DNA from: a virus
Taxonomy: Duplodnaviria > Heunggongvirae > Uroviricota > Caudoviricetes
Strand: one strand, 5' to 3'
Length of the DNA: 5,885 bases
Virus record (IMG/VR): IMGVR_UViG_2675903481_000015
Below, in pieces: positions 1 through 1,803 of this stretch. The notes beneath the pieces were generated by a model. That model saw only the letters and a program-made list of their open reading frames with translations, made no database searches and was not told where the DNA came from. The translations under genes were made by a program, and so were the position numbers. Within the stretch, counting starts at the first letter, position 1. Every line of letters begins with the position of its first letter.

Positions 1-95
1 GCTTTACTGTTGATGGCGTCGCCTGGAAGGTGCGCATAGATGCAGGTGTCGCGGCCCTCGACTATCGCGGATTACTGAAATCGAGTGGAGCATGA
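1..95 (+). CDS. 3' end of an unidentified ORF entering from the left edge (C-terminus ...FTVDGVAWKVRIDAGVAALDYRGLLKSSGA, stop TGA 93-95)
   Basis: Frame 3 is open from the window edge to TGA at 93-95 and is followed directly by a hairpin plus T-run. Too short for any family assignment. Confidence 0.3.
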   Translation, partial: FTVDGVAWKVRIDAGVAALDYRGLLKSSGA

Positions 96-102
96 CAACA
101 AG

Positions 103-125
103 GGCGGCGATAGCCGCCTTTTTTT
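103..125 (+). terminator. Rho-independent terminator-like hairpin (GGCGGC-GATA-GCCGCC followed by 7 T)
   Basis: Perfect 6-bp GC stem 103-108/113-118 with 4-nt loop, then TTTTTTT 119-125, immediately after the stop at 93-95. Confidence 0.45.
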
Positions 126-352
126 ACGGGTCCTCCCGGTGGGGTGGTCTGCCACGGGGCGGGAGCGGCGCGGAAAAAGGCTGGTTTTTGCATTTTCATT
201 CGTCATCATCATCTTTCTATCATATTGAATTTTAAGTGCTTTTATTTTTGGTATGTTAATTTTGCTTATTTTGCGTTCAACATACAGCGCGTTTTTTGAC
301 CTTTTTTAAAAGATATTTGCAAGATGCATGTTTAAAACATTCTGGAGCGGGT
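126..352 (+). other. Lambda-like cos region (cosQ/cosN-like GC-rich segment 126-175, then AT-rich cosB-like segment up to the terS start)
   Basis: 126-173 ACGGGTCCTCCCGGTGGGGTGGTCTGCCACGGGGCGGGAGCGGCGCGG resembles the lambda right-end/left-end junction as I recall it (ACGGGTCCTTTCCGGTG...GTTACG|GGGCGGCGACCTCGCGG). The AT-rich stretch that follows contains TTCGTCAT, also recalled from lambda cosB. Position about 180 bp upstream of a Nu1-like gene matches lambdoid layout. Recalled, not aligned. Confidence 0.5.
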
Positions 353-838
353 ATGGATCGGGAACTGAAAAATCTGATGCTGAACATTAACCAGCTGGCG
401 GCGATAGCGGGAATATGTCGCCAGACTGCGGCGGCAAGGCTGAAAAATATCCAGCCAGCCGGAGGACATGACAAGCTGAAACTCTATCGGGTGACTGACA
501 TTCTGACCTGTTTTCTTGATCTTCCCGTTCCGGCATCACTGGAAGAAATGGAGCCACACGACCGTAAGGCCTGGTATCAGTCCGAACGTGAGCGCCTCAA
601 GTTCGAACAGGAAACGGCGCAACTCATACCCGCCGATGATGTGCGAAAAGAGATGGCTATATGGGGAGAAATCGTAAGCGAGGAACTGGAAAAACTCCCC
701 AGTATTCTGGCACGTGATGCTGGGCTTAAACCGATGGCAGTAAACAGAGTGCAGTCAATTATTGACGATTTGTGTAATCTGATTATCAGCCGGATGGTAA
801 AAAATGACGTAGTGAATGAGGTCGCAAAACAGGCATGA
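353..838 (+). CDS. Terminase small subunit, Nu1 family (or a satellite-encoded TerS-like packaging protein)
   Basis: Track ORF 296-838; preferred start ATG 353 (MDRELKN...) with GGAG at 344-347. N-terminus LNINQLAAIAGICRQTAAARLKN...P.GG..K..LY matches the lambda gpNu1 winged-HTH pattern (VNKKQLADIFGASIRTIQNWQ...), and GEIVSEELEKLP resembles gpNu1 AGEIASILDGLP. Sits downstream of the cos-like site. Confidence 0.72.
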   Translation: MDRELKNLMLNINQLAAIAGICRQTAAARLKNIQPAGGHDKLKLYRVTDILTCFLDLPVPASLEEMEPHDRKAWYQSERERLKFEQETAQLIPADDVRKEMAIWGEIVSEELEKLPSILARDAGLKPMAVNRVQSIIDDLCNLIISRMVKNDVVNEVAKQA

Positions 839-1122
839 TAATGACCGAATCTGAAATACTGCGATTAATCCGCTGTGCTGGTGGAATTAGCCAGTTGGCT
901 GACGAACAGGCCGCGCAGCCGGATACAGTCACCGCTGAAAATTACGCGCGTGTGGTGGCTGAGGTGATGCGCCGTGACGGTATTGAGCTTAACGGCGTGG
1001 ATATGCGCAACATACGAACCAGAGTCCTTGAGTTGCTGGCATACCGTCGCCGTTCTCAACAACGGAGGGAGAGCGCGAAAAATACTTACCAGTGGAAGAA
1101 GCCGGAACGACTGCGGCGGTAA
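835..1122 (+). CDS. Hypothetical 95-aa protein coupled to terS, occupying the position of the large terminase gene; possibly a terL N-terminal remnant
   Basis: ATG 835 overlaps the terS stop (ATGA, 835-838); alternative ATG 841. Basic C-terminus (RRRSQQRRESAKNTYQWKKPERLRR). N-terminal SEILRLIRCAGG weakly resembles recalled lambda gpA N-terminus (SQVNRLRHFVRAGL). No ATPase or nuclease motifs. Confidence 0.4.
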   Translation: MIMTESEILRLIRCAGGISQLADEQAAQPDTVTAENYARVVAEVMRRDGIELNGVDMRNIRTRVLELLAYRRRSQQRRESAKNTYQWKKPERLRR

Positions 1123-1363
1123 CTTGCTGATATTCCCGATAACGCAAAATTGCGTTGGCTGGTGGGTGAGTTGCAGATTTGCAACTCGACCATGAAACTA
1201 CGGAAACTACCCGTAGTTTGGGTAGTAAGAGTAACACCCAGATTTTGGGGCTTACTCGCGATACCCAAATAAAGGGTATCGGTGGAAGAAATATCGTTTC
1301 TCATATGTAAGTACCGAGGGCGGAATTCCGCCTTCGGTTACTTATTGTGCTCATGCACAGGGA

Positions 1364-1423
1364 GGGGCGGGTCAAATCTCTGTACCCTGACGTCTTCAGG
1401 ACTGCCCGCCCCATCGATTTTTT
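1364..1423 (+). terminator. Long-loop hairpin with T-tract (GGGGCGGG ... CCCGCCCC, then TTTTTT)
   Basis: Perfect 8-bp GC inverted repeat 1364-1371/1405-1412 around 33 nt that holds an inner CCTGA/TCAGG pair (1386-1390/1396-1400); TTTTTT at 1418-1423. Plausible terminator for the terS transcript, though the loop is atypical. Confidence 0.3.
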
Positions 1424-1585
1424 ATACCCGCGAAAAATGAAAAACGCTTCACGCTGGTGGGCCTGATGCCGATATGGGGATCCACATAACGGATTATCCG
1501 TGATCATCCACCAGCTTCATAGCGGATAGCCGAAAAATGATAACGGTTAAGCAAAACTGCCAGCAAATTTCCCTTTTGTTTGTTA

Positions 1586-1640
1586 TTGTTCGTCGTTGTT
1601 CGTAGGGCTTCAACGAAATGTGTGGTCAGTTGTGTGGTCA
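1586..1640. repeat. Short tandem direct repeats: TTGTTCGT x2 (1586-1593, 1596-1603) and TGTGTGGTCA x2 (1619-1628, 1631-1640)
   Basis: Exact repeats read directly from the sequence, in an AT-rich non-coding stretch about 70-120 bp upstream of the junction with the thiM leader. Confidence 0.5.
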
Positions 1641-1708
1641 TTTTTGAGGTTTTTAATTCTTATATGCTTAAAAACTTATTAATTATCAACTGATAACAAA
1701 AATTAGTA

Positions 1709-1803
1709 AGAAATACCCGTATCACCTGATCTGGATAATGCCAGCGTAGGGAAGTCACGGACCACCAGGTCATTGCTTCTTCACGTTATGGCAGGAGCAA
1801 ACT
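1709..1803 (+). promoter_or_regulatory. thiM leader: 3' part of the TPP riboswitch (THI-box) plus expression platform and SD; 5' aptamer half absent
   Basis: AAATACCCGTATCACCTGATCTGGATAATGCCAGCGTAGGGAAGTCACGGACCACCAGG...GGCAGGAGCAAACT matches the E. coli thiM leader as I recall it. The preceding GGGGTGCCC...GAAGGCTGAG is missing (GTAAGA here in place of CUGAGA). GGAG SD at 1794-1797. Confidence 0.6.

Follow-up and report, generated by a model that had tools for sequence, protein, structure and literature searches.

Genes for virulence, resistance and anti-phage defence travel at high frequency on phage-inducible chromosomal islands (PICIs), and the way in which such an island captures the packaging motor of its helper phage decides which phages can spread it. 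The published model for Gram-negative bacteria, EcCICFT073 with its protein Rpp, combines a private cosB with a mimic of the DNA-binding domain of the small terminase subunit (TerS), and this island is packaged in concatemers of phage length (PMC6092414; PMC10111431). Further precedents are cos-type PICIs of Gram-negative bacteria that have capsid homologues and two cos sites (PMC6092414; PMC6739421; PMC10111431), and PICIs with ClpP-protease capsid genes at tRNA-Ile were noted earlier (PMC10111431). Here, we analyse a stretch of 5,885 nucleotides from the IMG/VR virus record IMGVR_UViG_2675903481_000015 ("the window" in the following), which is Escherichia coli chromosome and whose positions 1-1722 are very probably the packaging end of an intact, mobile cos-type PICI satellite of Gram-negative hosts; as a whole, this is the best explanation we have. 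This kind of element is already known, but the solution found here differs from the published one in the same species: the whole helper cos is copied, the DNA-binding half of a TerS-like protein appears to be matched to the helper by cassette exchange, the motor-facing half is divergent, and a second, unrelated cos is added. Paired unrelated cos sites and a cassette-swapping TerS both appear to be undescribed, and our literature search brought up no satellite whose cos sites stem from two unrelated terminase systems.

The island shares the general layout of EcCICFT073 and other Gram-negative cos PICIs, i.e. int, alpA, primase with origin (ori), capsid homologue, packaging gene and cos within ~10-15 kb (PMC6092414; PMC6739421). 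Like EcCICFT073, it is a satellite of lambdoid phages that depends on the large terminase subunit (TerL) of the helper, keeps the helper's cosQ and cosN, has two cos sites and carries a packaging gene whose product starts with a TerS-like winged helix-turn-helix (wHTH), the latter being a prediction in our case. At the main locus, L001 (NZ_CP147608; coordinates without an L-number are window positions), it is inserted between rcnR and thiM with window 1-1722 as its right end, and when both junctions are aligned with the empty site of K-12, the island measures 10,949 bp and is bordered on either side by the 14-bp core AGAAATACCCGTAT. In genomes with an empty site, the match to the window does not start before 1709, and thiM, thiD, yegX, yegW and part of yegV follow to the right of the island, from 1804. 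The order of its genes is int (tyrosine integrase), DUF6387, AlpA, YlcI/YnfO-like, Icd-like, two small open reading frames (ORFs), D5-type primase with ori iterons, HEPN, a fusion of protease and major capsid protein (MCP), cos1, the DUF1441 TerS-like gene, orf93, cos2 and attR. By Pfam, the integrase, which lies at one island end with flanking att repeats, consists of Arm-DNA-bind_3 and Phage_integrase domains, AlpA matches PF05930 Phage_AlpA (4.8e-16), and the primase (605 aa) contains D5_N, DUF5906 and Pox_D5 domains. The core set of a PICI as used by SatelliteFinder consists of an integrase, an AlpA/MerR/Stl-type regulator, a primase-replicase with ori, a capsid gene and terS, in that order (PMC10085698). 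All these components are present in the published order, the ori as a candidate marked by iterons next to the primase gene, with the capsid gene (CLP_protease + Phage_capsid_4) followed by the small-terminase homologue (DUF1441 / PHROG 141); the size fits the ~10-20 kb of this definition, and the phage genes that it excludes are absent (PMC10085698). RefSeq annotation and Pfam scans revealed no TerL, portal, tail or lysis genes in the 10,949-bp island, and neither HNH nor head-tail connector genes. Without a large terminase, portal, tail and lysis genes of its own, the island must therefore borrow these functions from a helper.

The capsid-cos-DUF1441-orf93 block is found with differing integrases at no fewer than five chromosomal sites, among them thiM, tRNA-Ile and clpS. 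At least 80% of window 100-1530 is present in 142 genomes, and the exact attR junction in 76 of 5,426 complete genomes (1.4%). The occurrence of the module at several att sites is indirect evidence of transfer, as far as comparison of genomes can tell. The original prediction, which was made from the letters of the window, had wavered between a decayed lambdoid prophage and a PICI-like cos-type satellite that hijacks a helper terminase, and had considered the choice undecidable from the window. The surrounding context does decide, and in favour of the satellite, with int, AlpA, D5-type primase and ori iterons to the left and a 14-bp att duplication. The prediction was right about a short ORF in the large-terminase position (835-1122, or 841-1122 with 93 aa in RefSeq), which has no similarity to TerL, and a terL gene hidden by a frameshift or an assembly error is excluded, as window 1-1800 is 100% identical in at least eight independent complete genomes. 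On the other hand, its description of a stand-alone module with no structural genes does not hold, since the 3' end of the 637-aa protease/MCP fusion gene occupies the left edge of the window. Chromosomal genes do follow the module, as it had stated, but they begin inside a split riboswitch, a point that it missed together with the upstream capsid gene, the second cos downstream and the mosaic nature of the TerS-like protein.

The first cos site, cos1, is indeed lambda-like as had been proposed: window 126-176 aligns with the joined lambda ends and includes the heptamer GGGTCCT, which we take to be cosQ from established knowledge of lambda, as well as a lambda-like cosN (ACG/GGGCGGGAGCGG/CGCGG, compared with ACG/GGGCGGCGACCT/CGCGG in lambda). 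The putative cleavage positions are placed by homology to the lambda cohesive end. The same segment equals, bar one base, the cos region of phage vB_EcoS-569R4 (569R4), flanked there by the lysis genes and terS. A 20-mer spanning cosN has a single occurrence in 41.8 kb, against 0 expected by chance. Positions 126-156 are invariant between satellites and mEp460-type phages, and in prophage L011, of the mEp460-type lineage, cosN is identical, the cosB-type region at 169-305 is ~90% identical, and DNA identity over cosQ-cosN-cosB plus the first half of the TerS gene (126-642) amounts to 93%. The closest acidic-tailed homologue of the TerS-like protein, P0131, is encoded in prophages L011-L014, where the genes for GpA TerL, portal and a protease/capsid fusion come next. 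In contrast to EcCICFT073, whose own cosB differs from that of its helper, the island thus carries a copy of the helper's cosB. A private cosB as in EcCICFT073, considered in view of the divergence of 169-305 from 569R4, was overturned by the P0131-type prophage, which has the same cosB. No similarity to lambda R-elements and no clear repeats were found in 169-305.

The protein encoded directly downstream of cos1 had been predicted to be Nu1-like, with 162 aa. It has 161 aa and matches DUF1441 (1e-35) and PHROG 141 'terminase small subunit' (2e-56); the likeness to Nu1 holds by position and weakly by fold, whereas the Pfam scan returned DUF1441 only, without a Phage_Nu1 match. Sequence and profile searches against the PDB gave nothing significant, including the RppC chains, and NCBIfam had no match for this protein or for orf93. 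The AlphaFold model (pLDDT 81) shows an N-terminal strand-helix-helix-hairpin-helix arrangement, a long helix and a helical C-terminal domain, for which the best Foldseek hits were MerR-type wHTH proteins and the lambda TerS chain 6hn7_B of the RppC complex (probability 0.85), all of them weak with E >= 0.12. A profile-profile comparison with Nu1 yielded a probability of 4%, with residues 9-56 weakly aligned to wHTH residues 2-52 of Nu1. The protein is 67% identical to TerS of 569R4. Its phage homologues are encoded directly upstream of, and overlapping with, a 700-aa GpA-type TerL, while the overlapping downstream gene in the satellite is orf93 instead of a GpA-type terL.

Comparison with phage and satellite relatives reveals that this protein is a mosaic of a phage-identical N-terminal half and an old, satellite-only C-terminal half without acidic tail. 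It is identical to P0131 up to about residue 95 (60/60 over residues 1-60), and the N-terminal half differs from the P0131 gene by 13 synonymous and 2 non-synonymous changes (dN/dS 0.04), whereas for residues 97-149 the synonymous sites are saturated against the phage copy and dN reaches 0.37. On the basis of sequence comparison, the gene is under purifying selection. Over residues 1-60, 61-144 and 145-161, respectively, the window protein shares 100%, 77% and 18% identity with phage P0131 and 70%, 69% and 18% with phage 569R4, compared with 88%, 86% and 88% for satellite P0124, 70%, 89% and 100% for satellite P0126, whose N-terminal half equals that of phage 569R4, and 52%, 92% and 100% for satellite P0135. 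All 12 satellite-type tails listed end in ...ISRMV(K/I)ND(V/A)VNE(V/D)(A/V)K(Q/L)A, and in the window protein the acidic tail is replaced by ...KNDVVNEVAKQA. The other listed family members of typical length, from Escherichia to Proteus and Serratia, have acidic tails such as EAGADDEEELQQEE, bar two aberrant sequences. As regards genomic context, the non-acidic variants examined were all located in satellites (5/5) and the acidic ones examined in phages. In part, the mosaic may result from the limits set to homologous recombination, there being no homology downstream of terS, rather than from selection, but this caveat leaves the loss of the conserved acidic tail unexplained. The C-terminus of lambda Nu1 binds gpA, and by likeness the acidic tail may be the segment that binds TerL. 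TerS of the pac-type staphylococcal pathogenicity islands (SaPIs) is likewise a satellite TerS paralogue working with the helper's TerL, as we assume for the island; there, however, the DNA-recognition part is divergent and the TerL-binding part phage-compatible, which is reversed here. The difference to Rpp is just as clear: Rpp (144-153 aa) heterodimerises with the helper TerS and thereby creates a new specificity, whereas the island encodes a full-length DUF1441 TerS paralogue without sequence similarity to RppC, in which the distinctive part is C-terminal and not the DNA-binding domain.

A link between cos1 and the N-terminal half emerges from the comparison of several loci. While cosQ and cosN are constant across satellites and phages, cosB is the only variable part of cos and exists in three types, and in the alignment its type tracks that of the TerS N-terminal half in satellites and phages alike. 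Type A is shared by the window, satellite L022 and prophage L011, and type B by satellite L020 (P0126) and phage 569R4, including the same 10-bp deletion; type C is present in satellites L015 (P0135) and L007 (no TerS gene), with no counterpart found among the phages and prophages compared. Since the three cosB types follow the types of the N-terminal half, the data support a role of 169-305 as TerS-specificity part of cos and of the DUF1441 N-terminal half as DNA-recognition domain. They also support a scenario in which both travel as one cassette between helpers and satellites, with the satellite C-terminal half retained. Though without R-element likeness, cosB co-varies with the TerS type as expected of a TerS-binding region.

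The second site, cos2, derives from a different terminase system. The 83 bp at 1360-1442 are 92-95% identical to the HNH-TerS intergenic segment of SfII, ST64B, vB_EcoM-720R4 and others, and cover most of this segment, which spans ~105 bp in the phages. The cohesive end of SfI, 5'-TGCCCGCCCC-3', was mapped by sequencing virion DNA, and the SfI-type cos is reported to be near-identical in SfV (one base differs) and identical in SfII and SfIV (PMC3636060; PMC3851460). The window 10-mer equals the mapped SfI end exactly. Packaging in SfV/SfI-type phages relies on an HNH endonuclease, a Terminase_4 TerS and a TerL composed of TerL_ATPase and TerL_nuclease, which are unrelated to the DUF1441/GpA pair, and in contrast to these phages and those of SfII, SfIV and ST64B type, the island has none of their HNH, Terminase_4 TerS, TerL and head genes. 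All four protease/MCP-type satellites examined carry cos2, and the cos2 block was detected in 328 of 5,426 complete genomes. It is part of the 360 bp that follow orf93, which are strongly structured and 96-99% conserved among satellites with different integrases. Copying a packaging signal for use by the helper terminase is also known from the SaPIbov5/SaPIbov4-type cos SaPIs and from the pac-site mimicry of the PICI-like elements (PLEs), with SaPIbov5 additionally encoding a capsid homologue, Ccm (PMC5052747; PMC11417361). These systems belong to other hosts and phage families, and neither two unrelated cos systems nor a cassette-swapping TerS have been reported for them; in EcCICFT073 both cos sites are of the lambda type (PMC6092414).

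Anatomy, homologies, mosaic and co-variation come directly from these comparisons, and from them we infer the following packaging steps. A helper would induce the island, which would excise at the 14-bp core and replicate from its own ori into concatemers, and these would be cut at cos1 and packaged by the helper's GpA-type TerL. Likely helpers, judged by homology, are mEp460 / 569R4-type phages and P0131 prophages, which possess counterparts of cos1, of the TerS N-terminal half (67-100% at the amino acid level) and of the protease/MCP fusion (58%), and differ from the island in having TerL, W, portal, tail and lysis genes and an acidic-tailed TerS. The satellite TerS-like protein would bind cosB without discriminating between satellite and helper DNA, because its DNA-binding half and central helix equal those of the helper. 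Most likely, the divergent, tail-less C-terminal half would alter TerL recruitment or the composition of the TerS oligomer, and this altered engagement would tip packaging in favour of the satellite or to the disadvantage of the helper. The protease/MCP fusion probably serves to build or remodel capsids, and packaging might proceed as tetramers in full heads or as monomers in small heads; the tetramer is considered because 4 x 10.95 = 43.8 kb is close to the helper/mEp460-type genomes of 42.9-44.5 kb. Finally, cos2 would let a second helper family (SfV/SfI type with HNH, Terminase_4 TerS and TerL_ATPase) package the same island. We therefore propose, tentatively and with less than even confidence, a two-part strategy in which two unrelated cos types give access to two helper families, and in which a modular TerS, with a cosB/DNA-binding cassette taken over time and again from the helper lineage of the day and an ancient, satellite-only C-terminal half, redirects packaging at the protein-protein step, the reverse of Rpp and of SaPI TerS. 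If functional, this arrangement would extend the range of helpers predicted for a satellite family that is common in E. coli, and would make it possible to dissect, in a natural setting, how TerS and TerL are coupled in GpA-type terminases.

As regards the nature of the element, the decayed left arm of a lambdoid prophage offered by the original prediction, with cos and terS surviving and terL and structural genes deleted, would account for the 93% identity of cos1 and the first 290 nt of the TerS-like gene to a real prophage and for the adjoining phage-type capsid gene. We nevertheless reject it as scarcely credible: the flanks hold int, AlpA, primase and ori instead of lysis or tail genes, and the order capsid-terminator-cos-TerS is not that of phages (lysis, cos, TerS, TerL, W, portal, capsid). 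Moreover, the att duplication is precise, the module recurs in identical form at several att sites and is carried by 142 genomes, purifying selection acts on the TerS-like gene, and orf93 is unrelated to TerL. It is also very improbable, though a little less so, that the island is a capsid-forming PICI (cf-PICI) or a P4-like satellite and not a classical PICI. Its own major capsid protein and protease would fit the former, and AlpA, the Icd-like protein and the large primase resemble P4-like elements. However, the TerL, portal, HNH and head-tail connector genes that define cf-PICIs are absent (PMC10085698), no Psu, Sid or Delta is annotated, and cos1 is lambda-like and cos2 SfV-like, neither of them P2/P4-like.

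Several observations weigh against our best explanation. Induction, excision, cos cleavage and transfer are all deduced from sequence, the cohesive ends of mEp460-type phages are unmapped in the records used, whose starts are arbitrary, and the wHTH assignment depends on weak fold and profile matches. Besides, a second cos1/TerS-type locus is absent in 9 of the 14 island-bearing genomes listed at >=99.8% identity, and a second cos2 locus is also absent in some of those listed, e.g. AH19E045; the helper is thus often not resident, and mobilisation would depend on a phage arriving from outside. It is not obvious how a TerS with the helper's own DNA specificity could be selective, and without the conserved acidic tail the protein might fail to recruit TerL altogether. 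In sister satellite L007 the TerS-like gene is missing while orf93, the capsid gene, cos1 and cos2 are all in place, which shows that the structure of the element does not require this gene. The 10-mer of cos2 deviates by one base (TGCCAGCCCC) in three other satellites. Alternatively, the TerS-like protein might mainly be an interference factor, acting by an Rpp-like logic or as a dominant-negative: it would co-assemble with helper TerS or occupy cosB, fail to recruit TerL for want of the tail and so poison helper packaging, while the satellite would use helper TerS or cos2. Besides the lost tail, which is conserved in the phage-type members of the family, and the dispensability in L007, this fits the identity of the N-terminal 95 residues, including the probable oligomerisation helix, to those of the helper, and it has a precedent in Rpp, which imitates the DNA-binding domain of TerS and binds to the TerS of the helper (PMC6739421). 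With an identical cosB, however, packaging of the satellite from its own cos1 would be poisoned as well; unlike in the Rpp case, cosB does not differ from the helper's, there is no sequence similarity to RppC, and the C-terminal helical domain is retained and conserved, suggesting that it binds a partner. We thus consider interference as the main function rather unlikely and give slight preference to a satellite TerS that works, with altered coupling, over a subunit that acts purely as a poison. Comparable doubt attaches to the idea that the cos2 block is no working cos at all, but a recombination scar, a captured SfV-type terminator or part of a larger structured RNA or DNA element. The conservation of the surrounding hairpin-rich 360 bp as a whole, the end of the block in a GC inverted repeat plus T-run that resembles a terminator, the mismatch in the sister satellites and the lack of an SfV-type capsid or TerS gene on the island are in line with it. 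Against it stand the high identity over most of the HNH-TerS segment with the exact mapped cohesive end, the retention of cos2 in all protease/MCP satellites examined, and the fact that carrying helper cos sites is an established strategy of satellites (PMC6092414; PMC5052747), so that a non-functional cos2 appears an unlikely alternative to a second packaging site.

Table 1. Features of the island right end and its junction (window positions).
Feature	Position	Strand	Basis or remark
ClpP-like prohead protease/major capsid fusion gene, 3' end (637 aa in full)	3..95	+	C-terminus match to L001 18182-20095
Intrinsic-terminator-like hairpin GGCGGC-GATA-GCCGCC + T7	101..125	+	read from sequence; after capsid gene
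cos1 left part, presumed lambda cosQ heptamer GGGTCCT at 128-134, 22 bp before cosN	126..156	+	alignments
cos1 cosN, putative 12-nt cohesive end GGGCGGGAGCGG	157..168	.	positional homology to lambda
cos1 cosB-type region, type A (putative TerS specificity determinant)	169..305	+	co-variation with TerS N-terminal half
Conserved leader and ribosome-binding site of TerS-like gene	306..352	+	identical in type A/B satellites and phages
TerS-like gene, helper-matched half, residues 1-~97: predicted wHTH and conserved central helix	353..642	+	P0131 identity
TerS-like gene, satellite-specific half, residues ~98-161: helical domain and non-acidic tail ...ISRMVKNDVVNEVAKQA	643..838	+	satellite identity
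orf93: satellite-specific last gene, small, helical, basic C-terminus	841..1122	+	PHROG 1561, unknown function
Conserved hairpin-rich non-coding block, ~240 bp, ~six consecutive hairpins	1123..1359	.	96-99% identity among satellites
cos2, SfV/SfI/SfII/ST64B type, 10-nt cohesive end TGCCCGCCCC at 1403-1412	1360..1442	+	phage identity
Integrase-specific right att arm	1530..1708	.	satellites with other integrases stop matching at ~1529
attR crossover core AGAAATACCCGTAT, island right boundary	1709..1722	.	empty K-12 alignment; attL copy L001 10760-10773
3' remnant of thiM TPP (thiamine pyrophosphate) riboswitch aptamer	1709..1769	+	Rfam; cut from 5' half by island

The remaining genes and elements of the right end (Table 1) are in part shared with phages and in part specific for satellites. 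The protease/MCP fusion (L001 18182-20095) is 58% identical over its full length to the fusion of 569R4 (L002 13545-15503), in contrast to the E-like MCP plus decoration protein of EcCICFT073. Compared with the phage fusion, the satellite protein lacks 29 residues in the protease-capsid linker, around residue 210, a loss that may matter for capsid size or scaffolding. The hairpin behind the capsid gene is present in satellites and absent from phages at the same position of the alignment. The last gene, orf93, has relatives in 959 protein clusters of Enterobacteriaceae and is essentially absent from phage genomes; satellites of the lambda and mEp460 types have it whether or not they encode TerS, and in satellites matched to different helpers it is invariably the last gene. 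Sequence and profile searches of the PDB with orf93 gave nothing significant, and a fold search with its low-confidence structure model (pLDDT 67) returned no matches. A remnant or mimic of the TerL N-terminus was dismissed for lack of similarity, a marginal BrxA match (E 0.008) was disregarded, and sequestration of the acidic tail of helper TerS by the basic C-terminal helix is unlikely, since orf93 also occurs in lambda-type and TerS-less satellites. A scan of genome contigs seeded with orf93 yielded a single Shigella locus. The hairpin-rich block behind orf93 is better conserved among satellites with different integrases than the TerS gene itself. For the stretch 1123-1490 we obtained fold z-scores of -7.7 (+ strand) and -8.4 (- strand), and the long stem at 1309-1342 contains one G-T wobble that weakly favours an RNA of the + strand; Rfam had no match in 1123-1529, and 1123-1362 had no match in phages.

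Two sister satellites illustrate the variability of the module. The TerS-less satellite of E. coli O111:H8 (L007 11745-12004) contains a protease/MCP fusion, cos1 of type C and orf93 and adjoins a prophage at the tRNA-Ile site; its cosN is two bases shorter (GGGCGGGCGG). In E. coli O157:H7, a lambda-type satellite between roxA and phoQ (L008 9169-12283) comprises an E-like MCP, a head decoration protein, the exact lambda cosN GGGCGGCGACCT, a full-length Nu1 homologue and orf93, without cos2. This homologue shares 40% identity with lambda Nu1 and diverges in the DNA-binding region at its N-terminus; sequence and profile searches of the PDB with it gave nothing significant.

The att core is located inside the aptamer of the thiM TPP riboswitch (RF00059), which scores 33.3 bits at the occupied site and 71.2 bits in K-12, with a gathering threshold of 54.3. 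P1-P3 are broken by the insertion, and CUGAGA becomes GUAAGA. The native promoter and P1-P3 (with CUGAGA) remain on the attL side (L001 10700-10773), where they now face the integrase gene, while thiM keeps the 3' half of the aptamer only. RefSeq has no riboswitch annotation at the occupied site, and we found no paper linking thiM, riboswitch and prophage integration. With the riboswitch split in 1.4% of complete E. coli genomes, the island provides a natural experiment on riboswitch loss and thiMD control. Within the right att arm, a 70-bp direct repeat (1576-1645) with tandem TGTGTGGTCAG is mirrored near attL (L001 10859-10928; 87% identical). The repeats are probably arm-type integrase binding sites, because the integrase has an Arm-DNA-bind_3 domain. 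As att boundaries they were discarded, as the alignment with the empty K-12 site places them inside the island arms and identifies the 14-bp repeat as the core.

Outside the window, iterons and inverted repeats (AACTGTTCACC; GGTGAACAGTT...AACTGTTCACC) directly 3' of the primase gene (L001 16727-16915) likely mark the candidate replication origin of the island. Between ori and the capsid gene, a HEPN-domain protein of 237 aa is encoded on the - strand (L001 17116-17829; weak Pfam match, E 3e-4), in an accessory-gene position that harbours a single-stranded DNA-binding protein (SSB) in other satellites. PADLOC had no match for HEPN, DUF6387 and the small island proteins; the HEPN protein could be a defence or toxin cargo. 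Finally, one genome (GCA_031665325.1) contains two satellite packaging blocks ~21 kb apart (L020 and L021), one of which is directly followed by another int-AlpA pair, suggesting tandem or neighbouring satellites.

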